From: Gammaproteobacteria bacterium
GTDB taxonomy: Bacteria > Pseudomonadota > Gammaproteobacteria > JBCCGL01
Assembly: GCA_965277715.1 (NCBI GenBank)
Contig: OZ255836.1
Coordinates: 3,456,001-3,520,000, forward strand
Length of the DNA: 64,000 bases
Reading direction: 5' to 3'
Part shown: one piece after another, positions 7,652 to 34,969 of the stretch
Layout: each line of letters starts with the position of its first letter
Numbering within the stretch: the stretch's first letter is position 1
Position numbers and translations under genes: made by a program
Notes under the pieces: model-generated
What the model was told of the DNA's origin: nothing
The model's input: the letters and a program-made list of their open reading frames with translations, nothing else
The model's database searches: none

Positions 7652-8626
7652 ATGTATTACTATCGTATTTATGGTTTATCGGTAAGCAGCACCCATTCAC
7701 TACAAGGGGTGACAGCACAAGCGAAACGTGTAAAAAGTGACCTACAGATACACTGGCACCCTATCCCTTACGAGCTGCATTGGCAGGCGATAGACACGGC
7801 TGAACTACGCAGTCGTCGCAAAATAAATATGCACTGCGCAAAGCACGGTGAGCAGACGGTGCTACGGGTAAGTATTAACATGGAGCGTGCCAAACAACGC
7901 TTTTCTTTAACGCTCGAACCTGTAAGCGGTCAAGTATGGCTCGACTGGTCAGACACTGTACCGCTGGCCGATATTGAAGCCTACCTCTTAGGCCCGGGCT
8001 TGGGGTTTATATTACGCGCCCGTGGGGTATCGTGTTTGCACGGTGCGGTAGTAAGTACTGAAGGGCGGGCCGTTGCTCTGCTTGGCGCCAAAAAAACCGG
8101 AAAGTCCACTACCGCTGCCGTATTGGCAGATCATGGCTGGTCTGTGCTTGCAGACGATATAGTCGTACCCGAGATTTCAGGGCAAAAAGTATGGGTGCAA
8201 CCCGGTTATGCCCGAATACGGCTATGGCCTGAATCTCTGCACGCTTTACAGCACAAGCCAGACACGCTTAGCAAAGTCACCGCACATTTAGACAAGCGCT
8301 ACCTGAACGCTGATAGCGTGTTTTACCCCCGGCCTTTACCCCTGGCAGCAATCTATATTTTAGAGCAGCGTAATAATGATCATGTAAAACCGTTTATCAA
8401 CAGTATCGCTACAAAAGATAAAATAGTGAGCTTATTGAAAAACAGCCATGTAAGTTACGGCGTTATTACGCCAGCGCTACGGGCAAAAGAATTTACCGAT
8501 TTTCATGCGTTGGCGGCAAGGGTGCCGATCCGTACATTATGTCGTGCGGACAATATCACGCAGCTTCAGCAGATAAGCCAATTATTGTCAGAGGATATAA
8601 AAACCACCGATATATACAGCGGATAA
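7652..8626 (+). CDS. HPr-kinase-like P-loop kinase (type found in lasso/PqqD clusters)
   Basis: LHGAVV...LLGAKKTGKSTTAA Walker A, LADD, RIRLWPES, PLPLAAIYIL. Confidence 0.8.
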   Translation: MYYYRIYGLSVSSTHSLQGVTAQAKRVKSDLQIHWHPIPYELHWQAIDTAELRSRRKINMHCAKHGEQTVLRVSINMERAKQRFSLTLEPVSGQVWLDWSDTVPLADIEAYLLGPGLGFILRARGVSCLHGAVVSTEGRAVALLGAKKTGKSTTAAVLADHGWSVLADDIVVPEISGQKVWVQPGYARIRLWPESLHALQHKPDTLSKVTAHLDKRYLNADSVFYPRPLPLAAIYILEQRNNDHVKPFINSIATKDKIVSLLKNSHVSYGVITPALRAKEFTDFHALAARVPIRTLCRADNITQLQQISQLLSEDIKTTDIYSG

Positions 8627-8872
8627 AGACACTTATGCCTCGCGAACGAAACCCCTATAGCACCACGAATAAATACAAAGGTTAAAAGGTGAACTAACGT
8701 CTGCCCTTTTTCTATGTGGGCAGCGTAGGGTGTTATAGAACGTACACAAAATAATGTCCACTTTTACCATGTTATTTAAACAATGCGTTATGTGTTAATG
8801 GCACACTCAGCCAACTCATCTATAAGGAGTCGATACATTTGCAAACCCCGGAAGTTATTTCGTGCACGTTCC
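8613..8872. repeat. Repeat family A: ~260-bp dispersed repeat containing a 136-bp MITE-like unit (8737-8872)
   Basis: Inverted, highly similar copy at 52046-52309; terminal inverted repeats (A/G)GAACGTACACAAAATAA ... TTATTTCGTGCACGTTCC. Confidence 0.85.
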
Positions 8873-8999
8873 TTAGCCACCCCCAAAAAAAACAGGTGGC
8901 GAGAGCCTGTCCGCTTCTCAGTTTTTTTCCGTGCATTAATTGACTATTGGCAGGTGGCAGCCTAGTATAATCAAGAAAATTGTCGTTTAGAGGTCAGCT

Positions 9000-9182
9000 A
9001 TGCTGAAGTGTGCCTGTTTCATTGCGTTGGGTGTTTTTTTGATAGCCTGTGGCGGCGGTGGCGGCTCTACTTCAAACGATAATAATGGCAGCGGTCAAAT
9101 GCAGGGTCCGGTGACACCTTCACCCACGACCACCGCCGCGACTGCCGATAGATCGGTTCTTGATGGCAGTGTCTTGCAGTAG
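9000..9182 (+). CDS. Small putative lipoprotein, possibly truncated
   Basis: GAGG RBS, lipobox LIAC-GGGG, 60 aa. Confidence 0.5.
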   Translation: MLKCACFIALGVFLIACGGGGGSTSNDNNGSGQMQGPVTPSPTTTAATADRSVLDGSVLQ

Positions 9183-9203
9183 CCCTTAGGTGGAGAACGA
9201 GCA

Positions 9204-10298
9204 ATGAAGGCAAAAACCCCTCTGGTAACGATTTCAATCGTGTTGTTTATTGATGTGATGCTATTCGCCGCACAATCGCACGCTGCAACCTCTAGAGCAC
9301 CTTTCAGTATAGGTCATTCCTTTTCCTCAGGTGAGGTGCTGTCTGCGGATGTACTCAACCAGGCCTTTAGCCGTATTGAGAGAGGTATTAACCTGCCGGA
9401 TGTCAGCGATATTATCGGCACCTGGAGCTGTAGCAGCAGGCGCCTGAAAACATCCCCCACAACACCAGCCGATGGTGGTGGCTGGACCACACCGGCCAAC
9501 ACCGATAATCTCTACCAGGTTGCGAACCAAACGGTAACCTTTACCGCCAATAGCACCACCAGCTTTTCGTTTAATTCTACCTTTCCCAACTTATTTCACC
9601 CCACCGACCCCGCTAGCCCGGCGACCGGCAGGTATTCGCTGTTTGGCTCGCAGCTTTTTATCCGTAGTGACTCGGGCGATACGGTGGGTTCTGCCTCGCT
9701 GAAGATGTTGGGTTCGAATAATATCTTTCTGGTTATTGAAACCGGTAGTGAAAGGGTCTCCAGCACCTGTAATCAAACGACTCTGCCGCCCAATCGACCC
9801 ACTAATCTCACATCGAGCCTGAGTGGCTCCACGGTGAATTTAAGCTGGAGTGATAACGCCAGCAACGAGACCGGCTTTCGTGTGTATCGTCGGCAGGTAT
9901 CCACCTTCCAGGGCAGAGGGGCGAGAGCGAGAGCGCTAGTGAGCGCCGGTGGCGTGACATCTGTCACCGTAAGGCGTGGTGGTTTTGGTTATTCCACCAG
10001 TGCGCTACCCACTGTAGAGTTCATCGGTGGGGGCGGAACCGGGGCCAGTGGAACGGCACAGGTTGTCAACGGGAGAGTCACCGGTGTTACCATCACCAGT
10101 GCGGGTAGCGGCTATACACATGCACCGCGTGTATTCTTCAGGACAGCCAGTGCCTTCCAGGTGATTGCCACCACCAGCGCTAACGCCACCACGTTTACCG
10201 ACTCGCCGGGAACGGGTACTTATATCTATACAGTGACCGCCATCAATACCAGCGGGCAGTCGCCAAGCGCCAACATCGTTCTGGTCACTGTGCCTTAG
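9204..10298 (+). CDS. Secreted fibronectin type III domain protein
   Basis: Signal peptide (AQSHA-A); PTNL...LSWSDNASNETGFRVYR and YTVTAINTSGQS Fn3 motifs; GGAG RBS. Confidence 0.75.
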   Translation: MKAKTPLVTISIVLFIDVMLFAAQSHAATSRAPFSIGHSFSSGEVLSADVLNQAFSRIERGINLPDVSDIIGTWSCSSRRLKTSPTTPADGGGWTTPANTDNLYQVANQTVTFTANSTTSFSFNSTFPNLFHPTDPASPATGRYSLFGSQLFIRSDSGDTVGSASLKMLGSNNIFLVIETGSERVSSTCNQTTLPPNRPTNLTSSLSGSTVNLSWSDNASNETGFRVYRRQVSTFQGRGARARALVSAGGVTSVTVRRGGFGYSTSALPTVEFIGGGGTGASGTAQVVNGRVTGVTITSAGSGYTHAPRVFFRTASAFQVIATTSANATTFTDSPGTGTYIYTVTAINTSGQSPSANIVLVTVP

Positions 10299-12627: not shown

Positions 12628-15072
12628 TCAGCTACGCATACGCGATCCATTTGGGTCGTACAGTGGCGCGCCCTGCACTTCGGCGGGGTAGCGTTCACCC
12701 AGTATTTCCACGTCTACCAGGGTGCCCGGCCCGGCGTATTGGCTGGCGACATAGCCCATTGCCATCGATTTGCCCACATGGTGCGCATAGCCGCCGGATG
12801 AGATGTAACCCACGGCGTCCCCGTCTTTCAAGACGGCTTCATCCAGCGATACGTCGATAGGCGTGTCGATGGTTAAGGTGACCAGACGACGCGCAACGCC
12901 TTCTTCTTTGAACGCAAGTGTGGCCTGTTTGCCGACAAAATCTTTGTGCCAGTTGATAAAGCCATCCATGCCCGCTTCGATGGCGTTGAAGTCTGGGCGG
13001 AATTCCAAACCCCAGGCACCCCAGGCTTTCTCCAGGCGCAGGCTCATCAGTGCACGGTTACCGTACCAGCGGTAGCCGAGGTCAGCACCGGCTGTTTCAA
13101 TCGCCTCAGCGAGACAGATTAAGTATTGCGGACGGCAGTAGACTTCAAAGCCCAGCTCACCCGAGAAGCTCAGGCGGTTGAGCACGACGGGCACGCCGCC
13201 GACGTAGGTGTGGCGTGTGTCGCGAAATGAAAAGGCATCGGTAGAGACATCATCACGCGTGATACGGGAAAGCAGTTGGCGCGATTGGGGGCCGGATAAA
13301 GCGATGCCATGCCAATCGCCGGTTTGGTTCTCATAGTGCACACCTTCGGACAGGGTGCGGGCAAACCATCGGTTGTGGGCGTCTTGCATGGCGCCGGAGC
13401 CGAATAACATAAAGTGCTCTTCGTCGAAGCACGCCACGGTGAGGTCACCATAGAGACGGCCTTTTTCGGTGAGCATGGGGGTGAGTGCGATTCGACCGGG
13501 CCTGGGGATGTGTCCCGCCATGGTTTTATCGAGCCATTCGCGTGCACCTGGGCCTCTGATCACGTGTTTGGCGAAGTTGGCGATTTCGATACCCGCCACG
13601 CCTTGGCGCACGGCCTCGACTTCGCGTGCCACGTAGTCGTGCGAGCGGTTGCGCTCAAAGGTGGGGTCTTCCCAGGCGTCTTCAGGGCTGTCGGCAAACC
13701 ACAGCGCGTGCTCCAGACCAAAGACCTGGCCCATGCGCGCCCCTTTGGCAGTTAAGCGGTCATAGAGTGCGGTGGTTTGTTGGCGACGGCCTTTGGGGAG
13801 TGTTTCGTTGGGGAAGGTCATAACGAAGCGACGTTCGTAGTTCTCGGTGGATTTGACTGTGCCCCAGTCGGGCGATGCCCACTTGCCAAAACGCGCAACG
13901 TCCATCGCCCATACGTCGATTGACGGCTCGCCGTCGATCATCCACTCGGCCATCGTCAGGCCGACGCCGCCGCCCTGGCAGAAGCCGGCCATAACCCCAA
14001 CGGCGCACCAGTAGTTGTGCATACCGGGGACGGGGCCGATCATCGGGTTGCCGTCGGGGCCGAAGGTAAAGGGGCCGTTAATGGCCTGGCGGATGCCCGC
14101 GTCGGCGAGCGCCGGAATGCGTTCAAAGCCCAGTTCCAGGCGGTCGGCGATATGTTCCAGGTTGGGGTTTAACAATTCGTGGCCGAAATCCCAGGGTGTG
14201 CCTTCGACTTTCCACGGGACGCCGACCGGCTCGTAGGTGCCCAGCAATATACCGTCACGCTCCTGGCGGAAATAGAGGTTTGCCTCGTAATCAAAGCCGC
14301 AGGGCAGGCGCGAGCCAAAGTTGGCAACGGCATCAATGGTATCGGTCAGTAAGTAGTGGTGCTCCATGGGCTGTACCGGCAGCGCCATACCGGCCATATG
14401 CCCGACCTCACGCGCCCACAGACCGCCGCAGTTGACGACGTGTTCGGCGTTGATCACGCCTTTGGGGGTGGTGACATCCCAGCTACCATCGGCGCATTGG
14501 CGCGTTTTGGTCGCGGGTGTATGGGTAAAGTAGCGCCCGCCGTAGTGCCTGGCCGCCTTGGCAAATGCATAGGTGGTGCCGGATGGGTCGAGGTCGCCGT
14601 CCTGGTCGTCCCACAGGGCCGCGTGGTAGTGCTTGGGGTCGATCAGTGGGTGGCGGTCGGCGACTTCCCGGGGGGAGATGAATTCCTGGTTCAGCCCCAT
14701 GTAGCGCGCTTTTGAGCGCTCGCGCCTGAGGTAGTCGTACCAGGTTTTATTCGAGGCCAGGTAAAAACCACCGGTCAGGTGTAGGCCCACTGATTGGCCT
14801 GAGAGTGCTTCGATCTCTTTGTAGAGGTTGATGGTGTAGCTTTGCAGGCGCGAGATATTAGGGTCGGAGCTAATTGTGTGGATTTGCCCGGCAGCGTGCC
14901 AACTGGAACCGGAGGTAAGCTCATCGCGCTCCAGCAGTACGGTATCTTTCCAGCCAAATTTGGCCAGGTGGAATAAGATCGAGCAGCCCACTACACCACC
15001 GCCAATAACGACAACTTTGGCATGGCGCGGTAATGCGGCGTTGTCGGCGCCTTCTTTGGTGATTTCTGGCAT
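12628..15072 (-). CDS. GcvT-family FAD-dependent oxidoreductase (dimethylglycine dehydrogenase-like)
   Basis: GGGVVG, GSSWHAAG, INGPFTFGPDGNP and a C-terminal GcvT folate-binding domain (SLRLEK). Confidence 0.9.
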   Translation of the reverse strand: MPEITKEGADNAALPRHAKVVVIGGGVVGCSILFHLAKFGWKDTVLLERDELTSGSSWHAAGQIHTISSDPNISRLQSYTINLYKEIEALSGQSVGLHLTGGFYLASNKTWYDYLRRERSKARYMGLNQEFISPREVADRHPLIDPKHYHAALWDDQDGDLDPSGTTYAFAKAARHYGGRYFTHTPATKTRQCADGSWDVTTPKGVINAEHVVNCGGLWAREVGHMAGMALPVQPMEHHYLLTDTIDAVANFGSRLPCGFDYEANLYFRQERDGILLGTYEPVGVPWKVEGTPWDFGHELLNPNLEHIADRLELGFERIPALADAGIRQAINGPFTFGPDGNPMIGPVPGMHNYWCAVGVMAGFCQGGGVGLTMAEWMIDGEPSIDVWAMDVARFGKWASPDWGTVKSTENYERRFVMTFPNETLPKGRRQQTTALYDRLTAKGARMGQVFGLEHALWFADSPEDAWEDPTFERNRSHDYVAREVEAVRQGVAGIEIANFAKHVIRGPGAREWLDKTMAGHIPRPGRIALTPMLTEKGRLYGDLTVACFDEEHFMLFGSGAMQDAHNRWFARTLSEGVHYENQTGDWHGIALSGPQSRQLLSRITRDDVSTDAFSFRDTRHTYVGGVPVVLNRLSFSGELGFEVYCRPQYLICLAEAIETAGADLGYRWYGNRALMSLRLEKAWGAWGLEFRPDFNAIEAGMDGFINWHKDFVGKQATLAFKEEGVARRLVTLTIDTPIDVSLDEAVLKDGDAVGYISSGGYAHHVGKSMAMGYVASQYAGPGTLVDVEILGERYPAEVQGAPLYDPNGSRMRS

Positions 15073-22976: not shown

Positions 22977-23124
22977 GCCAGTGTGTCAGCACCGTGATAA
23001 CGCGTGTGAATATTGACGCCACACAACTGCCTGGGCAAGCGCACAGGCGAGGCAGAGACTGACGGATTAGCCGGTGGGTAGTACGGCAACCATTGTGGTG
23101 GTGGCAAGTGCGAAATAAAACGGT

Positions 23125-23454
23125 CTAATTCATTATTGCCTCGTAATAACGACCGTCTTCGTTCTCACCGATTGGCACCATAAACAAGCCTGAGATTTTG
23201 CCGATAGCTTCGTTTTCCATATGAAACATCTGCTGTACAAATGCCATATCAGCGGGGCCGCGAAACACCATGGAAAAAGGCTCTTCACGTATATTTATAT
23301 TTGCCGTTTTGAACAAATGCCCACCCTTTGGCCTTGTCGGTAATGCGTTCACCTCCAGCAAGACAAAATCCACTGTTTTGTTTTCCTCAACCTGAATTTT
23401 AAAAGGTTGGTTAAGTTGCTGAATGAAAGCCTCTTTTTCTATTTTATCGAGCAT
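23125..23454 (-). CDS. DUF6916-like protein
   Basis: REEPFSMVFRGP...LFMVPIG...YYEAIMN pattern, typical of the small protein found beside tail-collar genes. Confidence 0.75.
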   Translation of the reverse strand: MLDKIEKEAFIQQLNQPFKIQVEENKTVDFVLLEVNALPTRPKGGHLFKTANINIREEPFSMVFRGPADMAFVQQMFHMENEAIGKISGLFMVPIGENEDGRYYEAIMN

Positions 23455-24104
23455 AATTGTTTCTCATGTTTATCCAGATTCCGGGTCGTACTGGTGTCCC
23501 GTCTACCTTATATTGACGGGCTTGGCGTCGCAATCCTGCCATAGAATCACTATACCGCGCCAGTGCGCCCTGCTTTGGTGTCACAGCGCAATACTGAATC
23601 CACCAACACAAAATAGATAGCGTCTTAGTGTAGTGTCTTATGCCTGGGTGTGAAATTACGTCACGCATCTTGTGTAATGCACATCTGTCTTTACACAAGG
23701 AATAAACGCTAATTTTTTGATGAATATATACTTTTCTTATGAGTAATTTAGTTCAGGACACTGCGCCAGAATATTTTTTCAAAATAAACCTTGATTTAAG
23801 CAAAATATGTACTAAAAGTATTCTCAATGGCTTGAACGAGCGCGCTTGTGAATCATTTTTCGCTGAGGAGTAATCGTTGTTCTATTGCGGTGGATTGCAG
23901 CGCAATCATCGTGGTGGACGTTTTAAATAATTACGGTGAAAGTATATTGAAAAAATTTAAAATTAATATGGAATTTTAAATTTAGATGGCCTATAAAATA
24001 TCAGTATAAGCTTCAAACTAAATTATAAATAAGGCAACAGGTGTTCTTTTAGGCACTATCGTCATTGCATAAACGTTTCTCATTCCTAACAAGTGGGGTG
24101 TATT

Positions 24105-24650
24105 TTGTCAGAACCATTTTTAGCCGAAATCATTATGACAGGCGCAGACTTTGCCCCGGCAGGCTGGGCATTTTGCGACGGACAAATTTTGCCTGTTGAT
24201 CAGAACCCGCGTTTATTTACTGTATTGAAGAGTACCTACGGTGGTGATGGTCGAACCACTTTCGCCTTGCCGGATTTACGGGGTAGAACACCGGTTCATG
24301 TGAATCAAACAAGTCAGGGTGCAATTTGGGCTCCTGCTGGGGTCAAAGGCGGTTATGAAAAGGTTCCAATCCATCCAGATGAGATGCCGATGCATAACCA
24401 CACTGTGGTTGCGACCGATAGTGCTTCGACCTCGGCTGACGGTACAGGTAACATTTTTTCTCAGGCAAGTGCGGCAATCGGTGGCAGCAACCCCATACCA
24501 CTTTACGGCTATCCAGGTGCACCGGTGGTGATGAATCCACAGGTAATGGGTAATGCAGGTAGTGGCGTGGCCCATGAAAATATGCAGCCTTTTCTTGTAG
24601 TGAATTTTATTATTTCACTGCAAGGCCCGATTCCTTTTCCTCCTTCTTAA
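24105..24650 (+). CDS. Tail-collar domain protein 1 (MdpB/microcystin-dependent-like)
   Basis: SEPFLAEI...FAPAGWAFCDGQ...TYGGDGRTTFALPDLRGR...HENMQPFLVVNFIISLQG; probable TTG start. Confidence 0.88.
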   Translation: MSEPFLAEIIMTGADFAPAGWAFCDGQILPVDQNPRLFTVLKSTYGGDGRTTFALPDLRGRTPVHVNQTSQGAIWAPAGVKGGYEKVPIHPDEMPMHNHTVVATDSASTSADGTGNIFSQASAAIGGSNPIPLYGYPGAPVVMNPQVMGNAGSGVAHENMQPFLVVNFIISLQGPIPFPPS

Positions 24651-24670
24651 ACTAATTGGGGATATTCCTT

Positions 24671-25198
24671 ATGTCAGAACCGTTTATCGGGGAAATTACC
24701 ATGTTTGCTGGAAACTTTGCGCCCAAAAATTGGGCCTTCTGTGACGGGCAGGTGCTGGAAATTTCACAAAACAGACCGTTATACGACTTATTTGGTTCTA
24801 ATTATGGCGGTGATGGGCGCACTACTTTCGGGTTGCCGGATATGCGTGGTCGGGTTCCTCTCGGTGCGGGTAGTGGCCCTGGGCTGTCTAACCGGACACT
24901 GGGACAAACAGGTGGTTTGGAATACGTTGTTCTTAGCGAGGAGAATTTACCTGTTCATACTCACTCGGTGAATGCCGAGGATAATCCTGGCATCGAAAAC
25001 ACACCAGAGGGGCAATTATTGGCGGAGTTAAGTATTAATGACAGGGCTGTTTCAGCCTATGCCAATACAGGTAGCCGGACAATGAATAACCAGGCTGTTA
25101 CTGCCAGTGGGGGTAATAAACCCTATAGCAGTTTGATGCCATATTCTTGCATCAACTTCATTGTAGCCTTAGCTGGTGCCTTTCCGCCAAGAAACTAA
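24671..25198 (+). CDS. Tail-collar domain protein 2
   Basis: MSEPFIGEI..FAGNFAPKNWAFCDGQ...YGGDGRTTFGLPDMRGR...FIVALAGAFPPRN. Confidence 0.9.
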   Translation: MSEPFIGEITMFAGNFAPKNWAFCDGQVLEISQNRPLYDLFGSNYGGDGRTTFGLPDMRGRVPLGAGSGPGLSNRTLGQTGGLEYVVLSEENLPVHTHSVNAEDNPGIENTPEGQLLAELSINDRAVSAYANTGSRTMNNQAVTASGGNKPYSSLMPYSCINFIVALAGAFPPRN

Positions 25199-25217
25199 CC
25201 CAACCGGGAGATTAGAT

Positions 25218-25718
25218 ATGTCAGAACCTTTTTTCGGTGAGATCAAATTGTTTGCAGGTAACTTTGCACCAGCTAACTGGGCTTTTTGCGATGGGCAATT
25301 GCTGTCAATATCACAAAATGCGACGCTGTTTCATGTTTTGGGAACGGTCTATGGCGGCGATGGCGTTTCGACTTTTGCGCTACCGGATATGCGTGGTCGG
25401 GCACCTATGCACCCCGGTACCGGTCCAGGACTTTCTCCAAGGTCTTTAGGAGAAAAAGGGGGGCAGCCGTACGTAACATTGACTATAGCGGAAATGCCAT
25501 CACATAATCACTCTCTGATAGCGGGTTCAACCAATGACAGCGAAGAGCCTCAAAACCGCTTCCCAGGCGCACGACCCATCTACGCAGATATGGCTAACAC
25601 GGTAAATATGAATGCGAGCATGGTATCTATGACCGGGGGAAACACCGGCCACATAAATGCGCACCCCTTTCTTGGCATTCCATTTATTATAGCGCTTCAG
25701 GGGATTTTTCCTTCGTAG
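25218..25718 (+). CDS. Tail-collar domain protein 3
   Basis: MSEPFFGEI..FAGNFAPANWAFCDGQ...YGGDGVSTFALPDMRGR...FIIALQGIFPS; GGAG RBS. Confidence 0.9.
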   Translation: MSEPFFGEIKLFAGNFAPANWAFCDGQLLSISQNATLFHVLGTVYGGDGVSTFALPDMRGRAPMHPGTGPGLSPRSLGEKGGQPYVTLTIAEMPSHNHSLIAGSTNDSEEPQNRFPGARPIYADMANTVNMNASMVSMTGGNTGHINAHPFLGIPFIIALQGIFPS

Positions 25719-25776
25719 CTGGAATGGTTCCACGGGCACACTAAGGTGCTGCTATTACCTTGAGGCACCTTATATA

Positions 25777-26835
25777 TTAATCAATTAAAAGTTGGGGGCG
25801 TGCCAGTAACGCGGAATAAAGTGGCCCAAGATCACCTTTTATTTGGGCTGTAAGTTTTGCTGGCGCACTTTGCTGTTTCTTCTGCCCATCGGGTAAAAAA
25901 ACTTTTTTGCCAAAGTCATGTTTTGAATATTGCTGAAACAGCGATTTAGCCGCAGCGGATTCAGCGGAGGTCAACTCAAGATTAAAAAATGTCAGAATTT
26001 CCGGCATTATATCTACCGTCAACTGGTCGTAATTTAAATAGCAGATGTCTTTTTTTTGACCAGCGGCAAGCGCCCTATTCATTAAATGGCCTATATACTC
26101 CTGTATGCGCTCAGAAACCGATAACCTGCTGACCGCATCAACGGATAATCCGGTATAGAAGGCGTGCATCTTACTATCATCGGATTTTATCCAATCGGTT
26201 TTTCCCCGTAAAAAAGATACCATTATTTCTACCGGGTCGCGATACAACAAAAGCGTGGGTATATTTGGAAAAGTGGTCAGTATGAAATCCAGAAAAACCA
26301 GGTTGAGCGAAGTAAATTTTATTATGTGGTTGCTGTAGTTGCCTGACCGGTTGCGTGCCATGCTCAAAATGAGCTGGCGATATCGGTGAATATTACGCTT
26401 TGTCGCGACTGGTGCCTGGCGCTTAGGGTAGCTCAGCAGATGGCAGATAGCATTGTGAGATGCAGCTTCACCAAATACCAGGGTTTTGCGTGAGCGGGAC
26501 AAGGCCTTGGCTAATAGGGTAGAACCACAACGCCCGATATGAAAAATAAATCCGCTGGGTTGAATCATACTACCCAAGTCCAAATGGTTGTCCAAAACGG
26601 CGATACTCGTTACAAAATATTCGACGGCAACCCCTTTGCTTTGTTGTAACCCGGTGTAAGTGCGAATGGAATTTTTGAAAAAACCTTCGTAAAAGTGATA
26701 GCGACCAAAGTCAAACCAGTACAATTGTTGCTGTTTGATGTTGATATCTACCGGGATCAATCCCGGCGATTGTTGTATTTTATGTTGGAGCTGCGCTGCA
26801 CTTAGGGGGATAACGATGGGATCGCTGGTAGGCAT
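25777..26835 (-). CDS. Sulfotransferase-fold protein
   Basis: FIFHIGRCGSTLL (5'-PSB-like loop) and LLYRDPVEIMVS (3'-PB-like) motifs. Confidence 0.7.
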   Translation of the reverse strand: MPTSDPIVIPLSAAQLQHKIQQSPGLIPVDINIKQQQLYWFDFGRYHFYEGFFKNSIRTYTGLQQSKGVAVEYFVTSIAVLDNHLDLGSMIQPSGFIFHIGRCGSTLLAKALSRSRKTLVFGEAASHNAICHLLSYPKRQAPVATKRNIHRYRQLILSMARNRSGNYSNHIIKFTSLNLVFLDFILTTFPNIPTLLLYRDPVEIMVSFLRGKTDWIKSDDSKMHAFYTGLSVDAVSRLSVSERIQEYIGHLMNRALAAGQKKDICYLNYDQLTVDIMPEILTFFNLELTSAESAAAKSLFQQYSKHDFGKKVFLPDGQKKQQSAPAKLTAQIKGDLGPLYSALLARPQLLID

Positions 26836-26841
26836 CGTGAT

Positions 26842-28023
26842 TTACTTGCTGAGGCGGTGTATCAGGCTTTTGTCCAGACGCAGAAAACCGGCTTTAACCC
26901 ACTCCTTGATCAAATCAATTTTTCCGCTTTCAGTAATCAGGCCGGTGATGTCTTTCACGGCAAAAGATTCATTACCCAATAATATCGTGAGGTTTTGCCG
27001 CAACCACAGTGGCAGGCTAAGTTGCTTTCCGTGGAATCGAATCAGCAGTTCTTTTGATGTTTCCTCCACCCGATATAGTAATGCCTTTCTTTTGACTATA
27101 CGGGTATCGGCATTAATTTCCGGTAACATCAATAGGTCTGCGAAGCGTTGCTCATTAACGGCTAATTGTTGATCGACGAAATTTTCATCCACTCTGTGTA
27201 AAAGAATTTCCGGGCCTGTTTTTTGTAGAAGTTGCGCAATGTGTTCGGAAAATGCGGTTATAAACTGAGCCTTTTCTTTGTCACTGGAATAACCATGGGG
27301 CAGGTCTTGTTGGAAAGCCGGATCGCCTGCGGCCAATGCCGCCAATTGTTCCAGTAGATGGTGCGCGCTCTTGGGCCTGAACCCCAGGGTTACGTGGATG
27401 GAGTAGTCATCCAGGGTAAACGCCTGATGTTTAAACCCTTTGGGTAAATACAGTAAATCCCCCGATTGCAATATAAGCTGTTTCGATGTACAGGTGGTTT
27501 CGGGGTTCGGTTGAAAGCGCCAGTTTTTGCTGCCATGAAGTTGCATCACAATAATGTCGTGGTCGTCGGTGTGTATCGGCAGCGCTTGTGCCTGAGGTGG
27601 GGTGATGTAAATATTTGCCTGCACCTGAAACCTGAGCTCCCGCTCTAGCGCACTGCAATAGGCGGTCAGCTTTGGTAGCGTCTTGTGTGCGGCATTGATA
27701 ACGATAGAGCCGCCACCTGCGAAGAGGCGAAACAAAGCATCGATATCAACGACGGTAATATGGCTGTAAGGGCTGAAACGCCCCTTGCGGGACCAGGTAT
27801 CCTGTGGGTATGGTGTGCCAGCGTTTCCCACTTTCAGCGCGCCGGCGGGTAGTTGCCGGTTTTGAAAATAAGCATCCAGATCGGCCAAACTGACAATACC
27901 GTCGTAAAACGCGTCAAGCCCGCGCTCTATATGCAGAGGGGTCTGTCGCCAAAATTCCTGGAAAAACCGGCCCGCTTCTACCGGGTGTAATATGTTGTTA
28001 AATTCGGCCTGCATTAGTGTCAC
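26842..28023 (-). CDS. JmjC/cupin 2-oxoglutarate oxygenase (ROX/YcfD/NO66-like)
   Basis: ANIYITP...HTDDHD..VMQLHGSKNW...GDLLYLPKGFKHQA: HxD...H iron triad. Confidence 0.88.
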   Translation of the reverse strand: MTLMQAEFNNILHPVEAGRFFQEFWRQTPLHIERGLDAFYDGIVSLADLDAYFQNRQLPAGALKVGNAGTPYPQDTWSRKGRFSPYSHITVVDIDALFRLFAGGGSIVINAAHKTLPKLTAYCSALERELRFQVQANIYITPPQAQALPIHTDDHDIIVMQLHGSKNWRFQPNPETTCTSKQLILQSGDLLYLPKGFKHQAFTLDDYSIHVTLGFRPKSAHHLLEQLAALAAGDPAFQQDLPHGYSSDKEKAQFITAFSEHIAQLLQKTGPEILLHRVDENFVDQQLAVNEQRFADLLMLPEINADTRIVKRKALLYRVEETSKELLIRFHGKQLSLPLWLRQNLTILLGNESFAVKDITGLITESGKIDLIKEWVKAGFLRLDKSLIHRLSK

Positions 28024-28029
28024 TATGGT

Positions 28030-28288
28030 TTACCGTCGACCACTAAAATTTGAGGCGAACACTTGACTGATATCAGGTGACTGCGCCAAACCGCCAGTCC
28101 GCTGCAAGGAGGTAATATCGGAGTCAGGCATATCCGTAAGCCAGGATAACCAAAGGTTGCCGGTATCTGGTGTCAATACAAAAGCAATATGCCGACTCAT
28201 ATTTTTGCTATCCAATCGAACGCGAAATGCCCTCGGTATTTGGCGGTAGAGACATTAAGTAGGCTCCGCCTTTTCAGTTCCCGCGTGG
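28030..28288 (-). pseudogene. Remnant of an HPr-kinase-like gene (paralogue of 7652-8626)
   Basis: Two frames give TRELKRRSLLNVSTAKY and FRVRLDSKNMSRHIAFVLTPDTGNLWLSWLTDMPDSDI, which align with TAELRSRRKINMHCAKH and LRVSINMERAKQRFSLTLEPVSGQVWLDWSDTVPLADI; kinase core missing. Confidence 0.7.
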
Positions 28289-30223
28289 TCACATGCTGAA
28301 TTCCGCAAACTGACGTAAAAAGTAAATTAAGTATATGCTCTGCGGAATTGTATGCAGGGCGGTAAAGTGCTTACGGTGGCCTGCTCTGTCACTGCTTATA
28401 TCATAAGACACCATCGGTATCAGCTTGTCGATATCCACGATCTCCCTGACTGGATCACGTTTCTGAATCGACGCGAGAAACTGCTGAGCCCATGGTCGCT
28501 GAGCGTTGTAGCGAAGGTGAAAATCCGGTGAAAACGGTTTTTTATCGTTGCGCCAGCGAATTTTTTCCGGTAATAAATCCCCTAGTGCGCCGCGTATAGG
28601 GTAGCGATCATAGCCTTTGTGCACCCTTAGACGATTGGGGATGGCCAGGCAAAATTCCAGAATACGTTTGTCCAGTAGCGGCGAGCATATCTCTATATTC
28701 TGGTAGCCGGGAAAACCCATGATTCTTGATTGGGTCGCGGTATGCAAAAGGTGGCGGTGGATATTGCGGGCGGAATAAGGTGATATTCGGCTGAGACGGC
28801 GGTTAATGCGATGGGCATCCGGTTTCAAACCGGCCAGTTGGTGTTTTACAAAAGTGGCTTGTAAATAGTGATTTTCCTCCACCATAGACAGTGTTGGGGA
28901 AACCCCTTGGCCGGGCAGGTTCAGAAAACTGGCCGGTAACAGCGGCTTGAGAATCAGGGTTTTGATCATACTGATACCACTGTCTCCGGTTAGTCTGTGG
29001 CGCGATTTTAATTCCTGTGTCAAGCGCTGCCAGCGCCCCTGTAACAATAGTTGGGAATAGAAACCAGTAGCGTGCGCGGTAGGTCCCAACTCCCCCCCTA
29101 TACCGTCCAGGATCAATCTAACCCCCATGCTTTGAGCCAGTTTTGCGCAGGCGCTATAGATAAAATGACGCGAACTGGCCGCCGGGCTTTCGTAACCCCA
29201 TATCAGTGCATCAAGGTGGTCAAAAGGCCCGCCGTCGATAGCGTTTAAATAAACCGTTCTAAGATTGGGAAGGTGATTAAACTGATCGATATAGTCTTTT
29301 TCATCCAGCAACGGATCTGCACCCGGTTGTGATATGGACGAGAAGGCCGTCAGTGACTGCCCCTGCTGTTGCAGGCAGGCCGCCGCGACGCCGGTCACCG
29401 CTGAAGAGTCAAGCCCGCCGCTAAACAGCGTGCCCACTGGATAGGCGCTGCGGCAGCGTGCGCCAATGACCTCAAAAATAAGGTCTCTCAGAGCGTGCAG
29501 AATATCGTCGTCCCGCTGATAGGGAAGTTTGTCGCAAGCAGCGGGTTGAGGTTGCCAATACCGCCATTTTCGCACTCCAGAGGTATTAACTACCATGGAT
29601 GTCGCTGCAGGTAGCCCGTAAATACCTTGAAAGTAGGTCATGTCCTCGTTTAATAGCGAAGACCTACCAGTCAATAGGCCCGCCAGCATTTGAGGGTTGA
29701 GGGTTTTTTTAACGCTAGAGGTGGCAGTCAGGCCTTTCACTTCGCTGGCAAAGAGGAATTGTTGGCCGACATGTGTATAAAACAGCGGTCGGCGACCCAG
29801 GTGATCGCGGCTTAAAAAAAGCTGCCGTTTCCCGGTGTCCCAGACGGCCAGTGCAAAATCACCGATCAGATATTCAGCGCAATTGACCCCCCACTTCACA
29901 TATGCACGCAAGATAAGTTCGCTGTCACTGCATCGCGGTTGCTCGGTAGGGGGAATCGATAATTGTGCAAACAACGTTTCGCGATTGGCTAACCGGGCGT
30001 CGGTGTTGATGGCGAGGCCCAGTTGTGGTTGATAATCTGGCAGGTTTTCGGTCGGTGACTCAGGGCTGATCCAGCGCATCTGATGACCCAGCGTGACCGC
30101 TTTCGCGCTCCAACGGCTGGCCCCATCCTGGCCATGGTGTGCAAGTGATCGCATCATCTGGTCAATTAAGCCAGGGCTGTGGGTGTCCCCTCTGAAATCA
30201 ACAACCCCGCATATCGCGCTCAC
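28289..30223 (-). CDS. Asparagine-synthetase-like lasso cyclase (C protein)
   Basis: RDHLGRRPLFY, SGGLDSS, DGIGGE, PLLDKRILEFCLAIP; N-terminus MSAICG lacks the Ntn Cys1; directly downstream of a lasso-like precursor. Confidence 0.82.
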   Translation of the reverse strand: MSAICGVVDFRGDTHSPGLIDQMMRSLAHHGQDGASRWSAKAVTLGHQMRWISPESPTENLPDYQPQLGLAINTDARLANRETLFAQLSIPPTEQPRCSDSELILRAYVKWGVNCAEYLIGDFALAVWDTGKRQLFLSRDHLGRRPLFYTHVGQQFLFASEVKGLTATSSVKKTLNPQMLAGLLTGRSSLLNEDMTYFQGIYGLPAATSMVVNTSGVRKWRYWQPQPAACDKLPYQRDDDILHALRDLIFEVIGARCRSAYPVGTLFSGGLDSSAVTGVAAACLQQQGQSLTAFSSISQPGADPLLDEKDYIDQFNHLPNLRTVYLNAIDGGPFDHLDALIWGYESPAASSRHFIYSACAKLAQSMGVRLILDGIGGELGPTAHATGFYSQLLLQGRWQRLTQELKSRHRLTGDSGISMIKTLILKPLLPASFLNLPGQGVSPTLSMVEENHYLQATFVKHQLAGLKPDAHRINRRLSRISPYSARNIHRHLLHTATQSRIMGFPGYQNIEICSPLLDKRILEFCLAIPNRLRVHKGYDRYPIRGALGDLLPEKIRWRNDKKPFSPDFHLRYNAQRPWAQQFLASIQKRDPVREIVDIDKLIPMVSYDISSDRAGHRKHFTALHTIPQSIYLIYFLRQFAEFSM

Positions 30224-30255
30224 TTCGCTATTTGGCCGATAGCACTCAGACCTTG

Positions 30256-30459
30256 CTAGCTAGACGTGTCCGTGTCAAAACCACCACCATCGAGGCCCGG
30301 CCCAGGCGGCATATTTTGGACTAATGCTGTAATATCGCCAAAACAGCTAAATTCGGGTTTGGTATATTTTTTCAGGCAGGCGTCTGTTCTCTCTTGCGTA
30401 TCGTGGTTATCTAATACAGAGGGAGGGTGTAACATAGCAGGATCTCCAGTTTCGGGCAT
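30256..30459 (-). CDS. Putative lasso peptide precursor (A)
   Basis: Leader KKYTKPEFSCFGDITALVQ (Y-17, P-14, G-8) then core NMPPGPGLDGGGFDTDTSS with Asp9; alternative start at 30435 has a GGAG RBS. Confidence 0.78.
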   Translation of the reverse strand: MPETGDPAMLHPPSVLDNHDTQERTDACLKKYTKPEFSCFGDITALVQNMPPGPGLDGGGFDTDTSS

Positions 30460-30645
30460 ATTAATTAACCTGGTGGAAAATACACCTAGGTTAGCGTTTA
30501 GGGGTTTATAACCGCTTCAAACGGTTTGAAATGCAGTGATGTATATCTTCGTTCATTGATTGGAATGCCATTATATTTACACTATGTGTTAGCAGATTCT
30601 GTGCCATCTGGCGTGTACCAAACCATAATGACAATGAAGTGGGAA

Positions 30646-30840
30646 AGTCATTTGCCCGGAGCCAGCCACGCCGAGATATTCTCTTCAAGGTTCGCCAATG
30701 CCCTCCAGGTATCGGTGCCGACCTGATTTAGCCTGTAATATTGTTCGTTATTTAACATTCAACAGTACCGATTTCCCGTCCGGCGTTTGAAATAAAACAC
30801 GCGTCGATAAAGCAATGTTTGAGGGTGGTAAATTAGGCTT
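30646..30840 (-). pseudogene. Frameshifted PqqD/RRE (lasso B1) remnant
   Basis: PSNIALSTRVLFQTPDGKSVLLN, a +1 base at 30756, then LNNEQYYRLNQVGTDTW; aligns with the intact gene at 34371; no ATG start and an early stop. Confidence 0.8.
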
Positions 30841-30906
30841 AAGAGCTTGCTCTATCTTCTCTTCACGCTACGAAAACGCTACACTACTGCCAACATGTTT
30901 AATTCC

Positions 30907-31386
30907 ATGAAAAATTTATCGGCACGTCTGATCAAACCGACGGATCAACCCTTTTTATTTGAACTATTTACTGATGTGCGGGGGAAAGGCCTGGAAAACA
31001 CCTTGCTTTCCGACCACCAAAAACAAGCGTTTTTGCAATCCCAGTTTGATGCCATGCATACCAGCTACGCGGAGAATTTTCCTTCTGCTCAGCATCATAT
31101 TGTCAGCCGCAGCGGTAAAGACGTGGGCCGGATTTACACCAACGTTTCACATGATGAAATTCGCATCCTCGATATGATTATCCATGCCCAGGTGCGGGGG
31201 AGTGGTATTGGTAGTGAACTAATGCGCACAATGATTTACCACAGCAACGACAGCGACAAGGTTCTTCGCTTTTATGTCTGGGCAACCAACACCGAGGCGC
31301 AACGCTTCTATCACCATCATGGATGTGAAATGGTCAGGGATGATGGCGGTTATTTTTTATTCGAGAGAATTCCCGGCAAAAAATAA
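30907..31386 (+). CDS. GNAT acetyltransferase (tail-collar/DUF6916-associated type)
   Basis: DQPFLFELF...AFLQSQFDAMH..Y...VGRIY...EIRILD...RGSGIGS; start could also be 30895. Confidence 0.85.
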   Translation: MKNLSARLIKPTDQPFLFELFTDVRGKGLENTLLSDHQKQAFLQSQFDAMHTSYAENFPSAQHHIVSRSGKDVGRIYTNVSHDEIRILDMIIHAQVRGSGIGSELMRTMIYHSNDSDKVLRFYVWATNTEAQRFYHHHGCEMVRDDGGYFLFERIPGKK

Positions 31387-31559
31387 CCGTCCCCGGTTAA
31401 AATTTTTTGGTAACAAGCAACGGTAAGCAAAGGTGCTTATAACCCATTATATTTTTATACAGTAAAAGATTACGCCCATTGAGGGTTAGTGAATTGCTCC
31501 GCTCCCTTCCCATGCCACTCGCTCTTATATGGCTTATGCGCCAGGTCAAACCAGCTAGG

Positions 31560-34370: not shown

Positions 34371-34649
34371 ATGAATATTTCTTTACCTTCAAAAATTGTT
34401 TTATCGCCGGACGTTTTGTTTCAGGAACTGGAGGGCGAGTCGGTATTGTTGAATCTGGCCAATGAGCAGTATTATGGATTAAACCAGGTTGGCACCGATA
34501 TCTGGGAGGTTCTGGTTGAAGAAAAAGGCGATGTGGGAACTGCCATTAAACGTTTGTTGGCTGTATATGATGTCACTGAAGATATGCTACGACAAGATAT
34601 GGACGCGCTGTTTACCCAATGGAAAAAAGCGGAAATAGTTTCTATATAA
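34371..34649 (+). CDS. PqqD-family RiPP recognition element (lasso B1-like)
   Basis: 92 aa; VLFQELEGESVLLNL..EQYYGLNQVGTDIW...YDVTEDMLRQD. Confidence 0.88.
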   Translation: MNISLPSKIVLSPDVLFQELEGESVLLNLANEQYYGLNQVGTDIWEVLVEEKGDVGTAIKRLLAVYDVTEDMLRQDMDALFTQWKKAEIVSI

Positions 34650-34689
34650 ACCTTATCGGTTTTAAGTTTAATACCATATTTTCTGTGCA

Positions 34690-34969
34690 CGATTGTGGCT
34701 CAAAATCAGCCTCGCTCTGGTAATTGAGAACGATCTTTAGTTTATCTGCGCTTAATCTGGCGCAAATGACATAAAACATGTAATTTAGGGCAAATATGCC
34801 AGAGCCCATCCACATTGCCACTCTCTGTTTTGACCGGGCTAAGCTGTTCTACATCAGTATGATTAGCCAGGAATGTGGGCTCGGTAGTGAAGAAAAAATG
34901 CGCCGGGCTTTTATTCGGCATGTTGGTGTAACCGTGAAAGAATACCGGCAAGGTTTCAAAAATATTTGA
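34690..34969 (+). pseudogene. GlxA/AraC regulator C-terminal remnant
   Basis: ISQECGLGSEEKMRRAFIRHVGVTVKEYRQGF (34859-34969), with degraded sequence upstream. Confidence 0.65.

Follow-up and report, generated by a model that had tools for sequence, protein, structure and literature searches.

The window, a stretch of 64,000 nucleotides from a gammaproteobacterial contig, carries a low-GC gene island after recG, on which a lasso-peptide module and a tail-collar module lie together. Between 23000 and 31500, the GC content is 0.38–0.55 and mostly below 0.50, compared with 0.51–0.62 in the upstream DNA, and the region 23125–31386 is probably an island gained horizontally. The gene order is DUF6916, three tail-collar paralogues, sulfotransferase, JmjC hydroxylase, kinase remnant, cyclase, precursor, RRE pseudogene and GNAT acetyltransferase, with everything from the sulfotransferase to the RRE pseudogene on the strand opposite to the collar genes. 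All of the genes named in the initial annotation are present at or near where it had placed them, as judged from Pfam matches or, for the small ones, from homology; the precursor and the kinase and RRE remnants match no Pfam family, and homology shows them to be genuine. The features of the island and two related genes outside it are as follows.

7652–8626, plus strand: intact orphan HPr-kinase-like gene, 324 aa (weak Pfam Hpr_kinase_C match)
23125–23454, minus strand: DUF6916 protein, 109 aa (Pfam PF21880, 74 bits, E = 8e-21)
23455–24104, no strand: AT-rich divergent intergenic region (GC ~0.38)
24105–24650, plus strand: tail-collar paralogue 1, 181 aa (Pfam Collar, E = 1.4e-25; ORF 24093–24650)
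24671–25198, plus strand: tail-collar paralogue 2, 175 aa (Pfam Collar, E = 2.1e-26; ORF 24656–25198)
25218–25718, plus strand: tail-collar paralogue 3, 166 aa (Pfam Collar, E = 1.1e-27; ORF 25176–25718)
25777–26835, minus strand: sulfotransferase, 352 aa, full-length ORF (Pfam Sulfotransfer_3, 29.5 bits, cut-off 27)
26842–28023, minus strand: JmjC (cupin) hydroxylase, 393 aa, full-length ORF (Pfam JmjC_2, E = 8e-21)
28084–28227, minus strand: lasso kinase remnant, an N-terminal piece with the P-loop domain missing
28289–30223, minus strand: lasso cyclase, asparagine-synthetase-like, 644 aa, full-length ORF with an SGGLDS loop (Pfam Asn_synthase and GATase)
30256–30459, minus strand: lasso precursor, 67 aa, or 59 aa from the second ATG (no Pfam match; homology to both L001 precursors)
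30650–30830, minus strand: pseudogene of the B1 leader-binding protein (PqqD/RRE), from three-frame translation and blastn
30895–31386, plus strand: GNAT N-acetyltransferase of the collar-cassette type (Pfam Acetyltransf_7, _1 and _10; ORF 30847–31386)
34371–34649, plus strand: intact orphan PqqD/RRE gene, 92 aa (Pfam PqqD, E = 2.8e-14)

Promoter-like and terminator-like counts between 23000 and 31600 show no excess over shuffled sequence. The absence of phage genes claimed in the initial annotation is upheld, as no capsid, sheath, tube or baseplate family was matched in a Pfam scan of 34 ORFs between 2976 and 42898.

The collar genes most likely start at TTG 24105, ATG 24671 and ATG 25218. 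The predicted N-terminus of collar 1, MSEPFLAE, agrees with that of the family, which is near-invariant (M-[SAT]-x-P-[FY]-[LIV]-[GA]-E). Alignments were made for paralogue 1 (A2), paralogue 2 (A3) and paralogue 3 (A4); all three paralogues share conserved HxH and HxN motifs, and collar 1 retains all 22 invariant columns of A2. The GNAT gene probably starts at ATG 30895, since residue 24 of the ORF is where its homologues begin to align. Among the NCBIfam models, it scores highest with rimI (43.8 bits, under the cut-off of 86). The DUF6916 protein is predicted to form a six-stranded β-barrel (AlphaFold2 model, pLDDT 87), and the model has no match among PDB folds at E ≤ 0.001.

Three collars, the same type of GNAT and DUF6916 form a cassette that was checked on 8 plasmid records and in 80 metagenome loci. 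DUF6916 homologues on plasmids adjoin GNAT and collar genes, and eight of nine inspected plasmid GNAT homologues adjoin collar genes; the ninth, from Antarctobacter, lies without collars in a locus that came from a cyclase query. Collar 3 and GNAT are contiguous in most complete cassettes seen, with one extra gene between them in a few, and in the Bacteroidota genomes G384 and G489, a formyltransferase takes the place of GNAT directly after collar 3. In the window, by contrast, 5.1 kb of lasso genes lie between collar 3 and GNAT, the DUF6916 gene is placed upstream in divergent orientation, and no giant ORF adjoins the collars, although one is adjacent in the usual triad cassette.

Residues 7–74 of collar 3 align with the collar region of T4 gp12 (PDB 1ocy, 1pdi and 5iv5; E = 5e-4 to 3e-3), but the window collars are three stand-alone paralogues of 166–181 aa that lack a shaft and have no phage genes around them. 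By description, they also resemble the tripartite tail of virophage DSLV2, which likewise comprises three consecutive small collar proteins, there of a collar-plus-head type. According to the available portion of PMC12724248, the DSLV2 proteins co-purify as a 1:1:1 heterotrimer that binds Synechococcus cells, with LPS as the proposed receptor. However, the DSLV2 system as described there is viral, attached to a capsid and without RiPP genes.

The lasso half of the island is a kinase-type lasso-peptide cluster that is now decayed. In an intact comparator, locus L001, the genes run B1, B2, A, A, C, K, JmjC, and a sulfotransferase gene lies near them on the other strand. The window cyclase scores 420 bits against NCBIfam NF033535 (cut-off 525) versus 192 bits against asparagine synthase, and is 35% identical to the L001 cyclase over residues 1–642. 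The JmjC protein has 27–28% identity across the full length of that of L001, which comes after the kinase in the same operon, and a similar cupin is present in two Azospirillum clusters. The sulfotransferase is 31% identical to that of L001 and 27% to a collar-linked one in locus L134.

Where L001 has a 326-aa kinase, the window has only a 265 bp gap between JmjC and cyclase, with a remnant of ~48 residues that matches residues 71–118 of the intact kinase at 7652–8626 (blastx, E = 5e-6). The B1 pseudogene has lost its start codon and has a 1-nt frameshift, in-frame stops and an unrecognisable 3' part; positions 30705–30826 share 72% DNA identity with the intact PqqD gene at 34371 (122 nt, 1 gap, blastn E = 4e-15). 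These two matches confirm the earlier reading of both genes as remnants. No B2 protease turned up in the window (no match at E ≤ 0.05). The collar module, cyclase, precursor, JmjC and sulfotransferase are still open, but with B2, B1 and the kinase lost, the window locus alone is unable to mature a lasso peptide. The orphan PqqD protein, a paralogue of the B1 remnant encoded 3 kb outside the island (lasso_PqqD_Bac, 49 bits, under the cut-off of 80), could supply B1 in trans. The orphan kinase, 20 kb from the island and 31% identical to the L001 lasso kinase over residues 3–323 (E = 9e-51), could likewise supply the kinase.

In the window precursor, the leader carries the motif YTKPEF, and counting its Tyr as −17 puts a Val at −2. 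The predicted core, NMPPGPGLDGGGFDTDTSS, is 19 aa long, with Asp at position 9 and Ser as its last residue. All of the 11 candidate precursors, from 10 loci, have the [YW]xxPx[LFVI] leader motif, and 10 have a C-terminal Ser; if the core is assumed to begin 17 residues past the aromatic one, all 11 also have Asp/Glu at core position 7–9. The leader rule and its Ile/Val(−2) variant appear in the accessible part of PMC10368454, which ascribes the variant to a subgroup from Bradymonadales, Acidobacteriaceae and Sphingomonadales; the Val at −2 is a feature that the window precursor shares with this subgroup.

As described in the available parts of PMC8498205, PMC9266682 and PMC10368454, the clusters of paeninodin (PadeK), ThcoK, SyanK (Sphingobium yanoikuyae) and BsfK (Bradymonas sediminis) share with the window the split B1/B2, the asparagine-synthetase-like cyclase, the HPr-kinase-like gene, the aromatic-xxPx-hydrophobic leader motif and the C-terminal Ser, and some kinase lasso clusters also include a sulfotransferase gene. 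The window cluster differs in that B2 is not found, both B1 and kinase are reduced to pseudogenes, the operon includes a JmjC hydroxylase and the predicted core begins with Asn instead of Gly, Ala, Ser or Cys. It is also interleaved with three tail-collar genes, GNAT and DUF6916, which those parts of the kinase-lasso texts do not mention. The canucin A cluster, in the portion of PMC8498205 that covers it, shares a dedicated oxygenase and a core whose C-terminal tail is rich in Asp. Its Fe/2OG hydroxylase, CanE, acts on the lasso precursor; the window encodes a JmjC_2-type cupin and linked loci have enzymes of AspH or 2OG-Fe(II) type, and the likeness to CanE is one of description.

The two modules are linked far above chance, in several lineages and with varied gene orders. 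Six of the 80 metagenome collar loci have a cyclase adjoining the collars, most of them also with B1, B2 and K. Among the 34 loci with at least 5 kb of flank, five hold a cyclase beside the collars, where ~0.003 would be expected by chance (P ~1e-15, and ~1e-5 even at a 100-fold higher lasso density). Further pairings, again with different gene orders, occur in two Bacteroidota genomes and on two Azospirillum plasmids. G384 has B1, B2, collars 1 to 3 and the formyltransferase on one strand, followed by cyclase and precursor, and in G489, cyclase and collars are 6 kb apart. On p1 of Azospirillum sp. TSH100 and a plasmid of A. oryzae KACC 14407, the three collars, GNAT and DUF6916 sit between lasso genes.

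The pairing is nevertheless facultative. Lasso genes are missing from 29 of the 34 long-flank collar loci and from seven of the eight plasmid cassettes reached via GNAT, and no collar, DUF6916 or GNAT gene was found within ~9 kb at any of the eight kinase-type lasso loci first examined in Bacteroidota. In linked cassettes, the lasso genes replace the giant ORF, "giant" referring to frame length alone: open frames of 1000 aa or more, which may be spurious in high-GC DNA, are present at 1/10 lasso-linked loci versus 20/31 others (Fisher p = 0.0036).

Three or more separate cyclase lineages pair lasso with collar genes, in interleaved orders that differ; mapped on the cyclase tree, the collar label needs five changes, at least three of them forced. 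Seven alphaproteobacterial-type cyclases, all collar-linked, form a single clade (support 89), and its five clean-triad members branch identically in the collar tree, which implies that the linkage has long been maintained there. The window cyclase is sister to that of L001 in the two trees that include it. L001 has its own collar array 1.65 Mb away and no collars nearby, and the nearest collar relatives of the window (L063–L068 and L078) have no lasso genes in their flanks, which are short. Linkage by descent is thus not supported by the window's own relatives, and the joining of the modules in the window looks independent of the other pairings. The co-occurrence test set beforehand supports the idea that the two modules belong together, as lasso core genes lie next to or around collar triads in many independent loci.

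These results bear on the earlier proposal that the two modules form one pathway: recurrent co-location in different orders (5/34 against ~0.003 expected) speaks for it, but the window's lasso half cannot work alone. It may be that there is no functional link at all and that both modules are mobile accessory genes prone to settle in the same variable islands of cell-surface or polysaccharide genes, the lasso block of the window having inserted between collar 3 and GNAT and now decaying. The Azospirillum and Antarctobacter loci do lie amid glycosyltransferase and O-antigen genes, the window's closest relatives of each module lack the other, and the lasso genes decay while the collars are intact, which argues that the collars are independent of them. 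Only 5/34 long collar loci are linked, and at the genome level Bacteroidota show no enrichment, with a collar gene anywhere in 1/8 of the lasso genomes versus 84/401 in the sample. We consider this account unlikely, however, given a co-localisation orders of magnitude over chance, the three or more cyclase lineages with different interleaved orders, the congruent trees of the alphaproteobacterial-type clade, the same-strand placement of the G384 collars between B2 and cyclase, and the missing giant ORF in lasso-linked cassettes.

The collars might instead be substrates of the hydroxylase, the large sulfotransferase and the acyltransferase, with the lasso pathway sharing these enzymes and hence travelling with them. 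Enzymes of the JmjC_2 type hydroxylate proteins. In L088 and L128, collars and GNAT occur together with a sulfotransferase and an AspH-type hydroxylase but without lasso core genes, as they do with an AspH in Pseudoalteromonas NC201; together with L151, L088 and L128 also substantiate the earlier suggestion that such enzymes travel with collar triads. Also in favour of this reading are the near-invariant N-termini of the collars, the position of GNAT, or of the formyltransferase in G384 and G489, directly after collar 3, and the resemblance of GNAT to the N-terminal acetyltransferase RimI, albeit under cut-off. Yet the L001 lasso operon has the same types of sulfotransferase and JmjC with no collars nearby and therefore another target, while the enzyme-linked collars have variable C-termini and no modification site conserved specifically among them, so that this explanation, too, seems improbable. 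Least probable, and in our view very doubtful, is a role of collars, GNAT and DUF6916 in producer self-protection or in lasso handling or export, for example with acetylation conferring immunity, as for microcin C and in the proposal for albusnodin, whose cluster has an essential acetyltransferase with a proposed resistance role (PMC8498205, in the part available). Only some of the linked loci (L137, L143, L147 and L150) include an ABC exporter, no signal peptide or membrane segment is evident in the conserved collar N-termini, and the cassette is found far more often with a giant ORF and without lasso genes, so lasso immunity is not its general role.

We lean towards the view that the island is one copy of a recurrent two-module neighbourhood in which a collar unit acts with a lasso peptide as its client. 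In its intact form, the first module would be a split-B, kinase-type lasso pathway: precursor A would be bound by B1, its C-terminal Ser phosphorylated by the kinase and the peptide probably also modified by the JmjC or AspH-type hydroxylase and the sulfotransferases, after which B2 would cut off the leader and the cyclase would join the residue-1 amine to the Asp/Glu at position 7–9 to form the ring. In the second module, the tail-collar triad with N-acyltransferase and DUF6916, the three T4 gp12-like collar domains would probably assemble as a mixed trimer, and GNAT may cap the collar N-termini. Trimer, acyltransferase and DUF6916 could then constitute an accessory unit that in most cases works with a giant exoprotein as its client. 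Here the client would be a polyanionic lasso peptide, and the trimer, resembling a fibre tip, may bind it or present it outside the cell. A literature search found no published description of the lasso-collar pairing. Although no function has so far been described for it, the pairing is recurrent in unrelated bacteria.

The genes spoT, recG and one encoding a RidA-like protein are core genes of the window, up to position 22976. They are followed by a low-GC stretch (23000–31500) with a GC fraction of 0.38–0.55, mostly below 0.50, compared with 0.51–0.62 upstream. Beyond the stretch lie a LysR regulator and an alanine symporter. The Pfam matches within it correspond exactly to the gene list of the initial annotation:

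Pfam matches in the low-GC stretch (23000–31500)
Low-GC stretch, minus strand: DUF6916 protein (PF21880, 74 bits)
Low-GC stretch, plus strand: three Collar-domain proteins
Low-GC stretch, minus strand: sulfotransferase, JmjC_2 cupin and asparagine-synthetase-like protein
Low-GC stretch, plus strand: GNAT

The earlier observation that phage structural genes are absent also stands: in Pfam, the 34 ORFs scanned from 2976 to 42898 gave no hit to any family of phage structural proteins. Nor do these ORFs include a capsid, sheath, tube, baseplate, terminase or integrase gene that would mark a prophage, a tailocin or a contractile injection system. Direct repeats, an integrase and tRNA-like features were looked for at the edges of the island, and none were seen. 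A promoter and terminator scan of the island gave site counts not above those in shuffled sequence. No close relative of the island was found when species-representative genomes were scanned with the cyclase; the sole locus returned was L001, an intact kinase-type lasso cluster in a Bacteroidia metagenome-assembled genome (G001), whose cyclase is 35% identical to that of the window over its full length. The metagenome collection used below does not include the window itself. Elsewhere in the window, a 364-aa protein (9204–10298, plus strand) has a signal-peptide-like N-terminus and no Pfam match.

The lasso half of the island belongs to the known kinase-type lasso clusters but is degraded. The intact operon of L001 is made up of a PqqD-like leader binder (B1), a leader peptidase with a transglutaminase-like core (B2), two 54-aa precursors, a cyclase, an HPr-kinase-like kinase and a JmjC protein, and adjoins a sulfotransferase and ORFs named CysD/CysN-like from a reading of their translations. 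This gene order is repeated on the minus strand of the window, but in damaged form. Cyclase, precursor, JmjC and sulfotransferase genes have full-length open frames. The best model for the cyclase is the NCBIfam lasso-cyclase model NF033535 at 420 bits (below the NCBI cut-off of 525), with asparagine synthase at 192 bits, and its open ORF keeps the SGGLDS loop. B1, B2 and the kinase, however, have decayed. The in-cluster B1 is a pseudogene that has lost its start codon and carries a 1-nt frameshift and stops, and its DNA is 72% identical to an intact PqqD gene 3 kb away (34371–34649). B2 was not detected in the 64-kb window by tblastn with the B2 proteins of L001 and of four other comparison loci (L085, L114, L119 and L143; E ≤ 0.05), and relaxed thresholds returned only noise in place of B2 remnants. 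The in-cluster kinase is a 48-residue remnant matching residues 71–118 of an intact kinase located 20 kb away.

That intact HPr-kinase-like gene (7652–8626, plus strand) aligns along its whole length with the L001 lasso kinase at 31% identity; it follows lysA-dapF-DUF484, and no further lasso gene is nearby. The orphan PqqD/RRE gene, a paralogue of the island pseudogene, is followed by a short ORF that by eye resembles the C-terminal helix-turn-helix of an AraC-type regulator (34371–34969 for the pair, plus strand), which suggests either general gene erosion or the remains of a second lasso locus, now dismantled. The lasso pathway of the window is most likely non-functional, barring action in trans by the two orphans (B1 and kinase) together with a B2 that was not seen. 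It is an eroding copy and should not be counted as a producer.

The window precursor, to which the L001 precursors are homologous, carries a YTKPEF motif in its leader. With the Tyr placed at −17, the predicted core is a 19-residue stretch that runs from Asn to a C-terminal Ser, and its ninth residue is Asp. The precursor fits the leader rule Tyr(−17), Pro(−14), Leu(−12) stated in passages of PMC10368454, and it has Val instead of Thr at −2, a variant that the same passages report for phosphorylated lasso clusters. With the cores placed by the same rule, all 11 precursor candidates from 10 loci have Asp or Glu at core position 7–9, and 10 of the 11 have a C-terminal Ser; with these features the candidates could credibly be phosphorylated by kinases of the C-terminal-Ser type, like PadeK and SyanK, as those enzymes are described in parts of PMC8498205 and PMC9266682. 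The first residue of the predicted core is never Gly, Ala, Ser or Cys among the 11 candidates, window included.

A GP.LDGGG-like motif is common to the cores of the window (30256–30459; PGPGLDGGGF), the Azospirillum oryzae plasmid locus L150 (9577–9753; AAGPLDGGGGL) and L001 (9398–9562; NPGVGSDGGI). The likeness of the GPGL-like part of the window core to a collar loop is probably a coincidence, as other precursors are without it. In the Bacteroidota genome G384 (locus L143), the precursor (14090–14269, plus strand) ends in TGIFPRS, and the collars of the same locus (8506–10213, plus strand) end in SGIFPTRN, TGIFPSRN and TGIFPTQN. It is the only one of the precursors with a collar-like C-terminus.

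The three adjacent collar paralogues of the window are about 170–180 aa in length and share 37–49% identity with each other. The collar region of T4 gp12 aligns with their first 70 residues, and no invariant column of the alignments with 18–19 relatives, HxH and HxN motifs included, is lost in them. The start of collar 1 is most likely TTG at 24105, which yields the family N-terminus MSEPFLAE. Across the window triad (24105–25718) and 22 others, the N-terminus is near-invariant, M-[SAT]-x-P-[FY]-[LIV]-[GA]-E; minus the Met it becomes S/A-x-P-F-x-G/A-E, a sequence that contains an xxPx[LIV] motif and has Glu as its seventh residue. Gln replaces the Glu in some lasso-linked collars. Best hits assign the three positions ambiguously. 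They reproduce the order 1-2-3 in only 2 of 21 triads; of the six closest relatives, five have a position 1 that matches window collar 1 and five a position 3 that matches collar 3. Eighteen tandem Collar-domain genes on one strand are found in G001 (contig C4:489334–500177, loci L002–L009), 1.65 Mb from L001. Tail-collar genes are also mentioned in a paper on programmed inversions (PMC9881135).

On plasmids, GNAT and DUF6916 homologues adjoin collar triads, and the usual order starts with a giant ORF and the three collars and continues, in some cases after one additional gene, with GNAT and a convergent DUF6916. The window GNAT is of this cassette type, but is found 5.1 kb downstream of collar 3, behind the lasso genes, and DUF6916 is upstream and divergent rather than convergent after GNAT. 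The gene that follows collar 3 is a GNAT in most loci; in G384 and another Bacteroidota genome, G489 (locus L145), it is a formyltransferase:

L143, 10255–11178: Fmt-like formyltransferase (PF00551 and PF02911), directly after collar 3, in the place of GNAT
L145, 17481–18395: Fmt-like formyltransferase (PF00551 and PF02911), directly after collar 3, in the place of GNAT

Further formyltransferase hits occur in L095 and L126. The replacement is a non-orthologous swap of N-acyl transferases. The best NCBIfam model for the window GNAT is RimI, below its cut-off, and this likeness, the swap and the near-invariant N-terminus suggest that an α-amino group may be capped.

DUF6916 is modeled with confidence as a six-stranded barrel (pLDDT 87), and a fold search of the model against the PDB gave no matches at E ≤ 0.001. 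Its weak top hits (TM 0.26–0.45) include tail-terminator and Hcp-like barrels and are not relied upon. A complex prediction of the three collars with the 67-aa precursor, run without controls, scored 0.00 and speaks neither for nor against binding. The large collar-linked sulfotransferase of L134 (11431–12720, minus strand) has a weak N-terminal match to the Nif11 domain (E 0.005), a type of RiPP leader; the window sulfotransferase is without this extension.

The initial annotation read the two halves of the island as one pathway, and in other genomes they do co-occur beyond chance. Six of the best 80 metagenome loci from a scan with collar 3 have a cyclase homologue beside the collars (L085, L114, L119, L123, L134 and L137). 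Five of these six are among the 34 loci with at least 5 kb of flank, and in them the linkage extends to a precursor, a second sulfotransferase and one or more of B1, B2 and the kinase. About 0.003 linked loci would be expected by chance in 456 kb of flanks (P ~1e-15), an estimate that uses the lasso-cluster density of a Bacteroidota sample; even at a 100-fold higher density, P is ~1e-5. The collar, GNAT and DUF6916 block is found inside the lasso cluster in L114, L119, L134 and L137. In G384, B1, B2, collars 1–3 and the formyltransferase follow each other on one strand, surrounded by the cyclase, precursor, kinase, sulfotransferases, an AspH hydroxylase and a PF14907 nucleotidyltransferase. 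In G489, the collars and formyltransferase are 6 kb from the cyclase. Its order is represented by 201 genomes, four of which, G489 included, have a cyclase relative; in that order, the lasso cluster of G446 is without collars, and G436 is ambiguous. Nesting is also seen in annotated records of cultured strains, on plasmid p1 of Azospirillum sp. TSH100 (NZ_CP039640.1) and on a plasmid of A. oryzae KACC 14407 (NZ_CP054615.1). The linkage is non-random and recurrent, and part of it has been maintained over a long time. Lasso clusters with or without collars on Azospirillum and Antarctobacter plasmids (L147, L148 and L150) are found amid glycosyltransferase, O-antigen ligase and WbaP genes, and these settings are cell-surface polysaccharide islands.

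The pairing is, however, facultative in both directions. Within 10 kb of L001 there is neither a collar gene nor GNAT nor DUF6916, and the genome that carries it gives no DUF6916 match. The cassette is missing at all 8 kinase-type lasso loci examined first (from 21 cyclase-like loci in 401 Bacteroidota genomes), and any collar gene is present in only 1 of those 8 lasso genomes versus 84 of the 401 overall, so there is no genome-level enrichment in Bacteroidota. Lasso genes are absent from 29 of the 34 long collar loci and from all three plasmid cassettes inspected first. In the window, lasso genes have decayed beside intact collars, which shows that collars do not need them. A sulfotransferase and a hydroxylase accompany collars alone (L088, L128 and L151) as well as lasso genes alone (L001).

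The trees point to more than one origin of the pairing. INDEPENDENCE: the window cyclase is sister to that of L001 with a support of 100 in both an IQ-TREE quick tree and a FastTree tree. One clade (support 89) unites seven alphaproteobacterial-type cyclases, every one of them collar-linked. The cyclases of G384 and G489 are placed elsewhere, and a relative without collars is nested among them. The collar label requires 5 changes on the cyclase tree, at least 3 of which are forced by well-supported branches. A tree of the concatenated collars groups the five alphaproteobacterial-type lasso loci that have a clean triad as a monophyletic set, which branches internally in the same way as their cyclases. 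The window collars group with L063–L068 and L078, in which collar 3 is followed by GNAT and the flanks, often short, contain no lasso genes. Together, the two sets of trees argue that the pairing is old and maintained in one clade and that it arose separately at least twice more, window lineage included.

Where lasso genes are present, they take the place of something else. Forty-one loci with at least 8 kb of flank were compared (29 metagenome, 2 Bacteroidota, 9 plasmid and the window). Frames open for 1000 aa or more occur in 1 of 10 lasso-linked loci versus 20 of 31 others (Fisher p = 0.0036), and frames of 1500 aa or more in 0 of 10 versus 13 of 31 (p = 0.017); three of the lasso-linked loci came through cyclase queries, and these numbers are valid for the conditional comparison, not as frequencies. 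The longest open frame of the window between 13001 and 41500 is 721 aa, so no giant surface protein is adjacent. The giant frames on plasmids are annotated in their records as Ig-like, autotransporter-associated, choice-of-anchor D or DUF4347 proteins. Giant ORF and lasso genes are mutually exclusive: the lasso genes stand where the giant exoprotein would be, and an N-acyltransferase, either GNAT or formyltransferase, is retained in the cassette.

In the family scheme, as set out in parts of PMC8498205, PMC9266682 and PMC10368454, the work is divided into leader binding (B1), phosphorylation of the linear precursor at its C-terminal Ser (kinase), cleavage (B2) and ring closure (cyclase). The three collars would form one mixed trimer, by analogy with the triad of virophage DSLV2, the only experimental analogue, likened here by description; according to passages of PMC12724248, it co-purifies 1:1:1 and binds cyanobacterial cells. 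The trimer, the acyltransferase and DUF6916 may then act together with a client, either a giant exoprotein or a polyanionic lasso peptide.

Functional coupling of the lasso and collar modules is quite probable. That the collar trimer itself binds or presents the peptide is rather doubtful. The full proposal appears rather unlikely: triad, acyltransferase and DUF6916 would be a general client-handling module with lasso peptides as one of two kinds of client, and either the heterotrimer would carry or present a phosphorylated, sulfated and hydroxylated peptide, or the RiPP machinery would also act on the collars. The latter idea draws on the collar N-terminus, which with its Glu7 and xxPx[LIV] resembles a lasso ring-forming segment and leader recognition motif, and on the likeness of the G384 precursor end, TGIFPRS, to the collar end TGIFPSRN.

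There is intensive mining for lasso peptides as natural products, and biochemical work has characterized kinase-type clusters. No paper pairing a lasso peptide with a tail collar was found in a literature search, outside which lie the cluster figures of the primary PadeK and SyanK papers and their supplements. The search returned no occurrence of DUF6916, and for COG4675/MdpB no functional study was among the matches listed. Of the two papers found that mention both lasso peptides and tail fiber proteins, neither discusses a link; one lists both gene families among halotolerance-correlated clusters. Sphingomonadales lasso clusters are shown in Supplementary Figures S2 and S19 of PMC10368454, which may bear on the collar linkage. 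In the literature searched, kinase-type lasso clusters that enclose three tail-fiber-tip-like proteins were not remarked upon.

The collar triad cassette is widespread, and its linkage to lasso genes is the first functional clue for each module. The coupling is testable in Azospirillum oryzae KACC 14407 and Azospirillum sp. TSH100, both of which are in culture and have intact clusters. If the heterotrimer carries or presents the peptide, the combination would be a weapon or signal made from a RiPP plus a receptor-binding protein.
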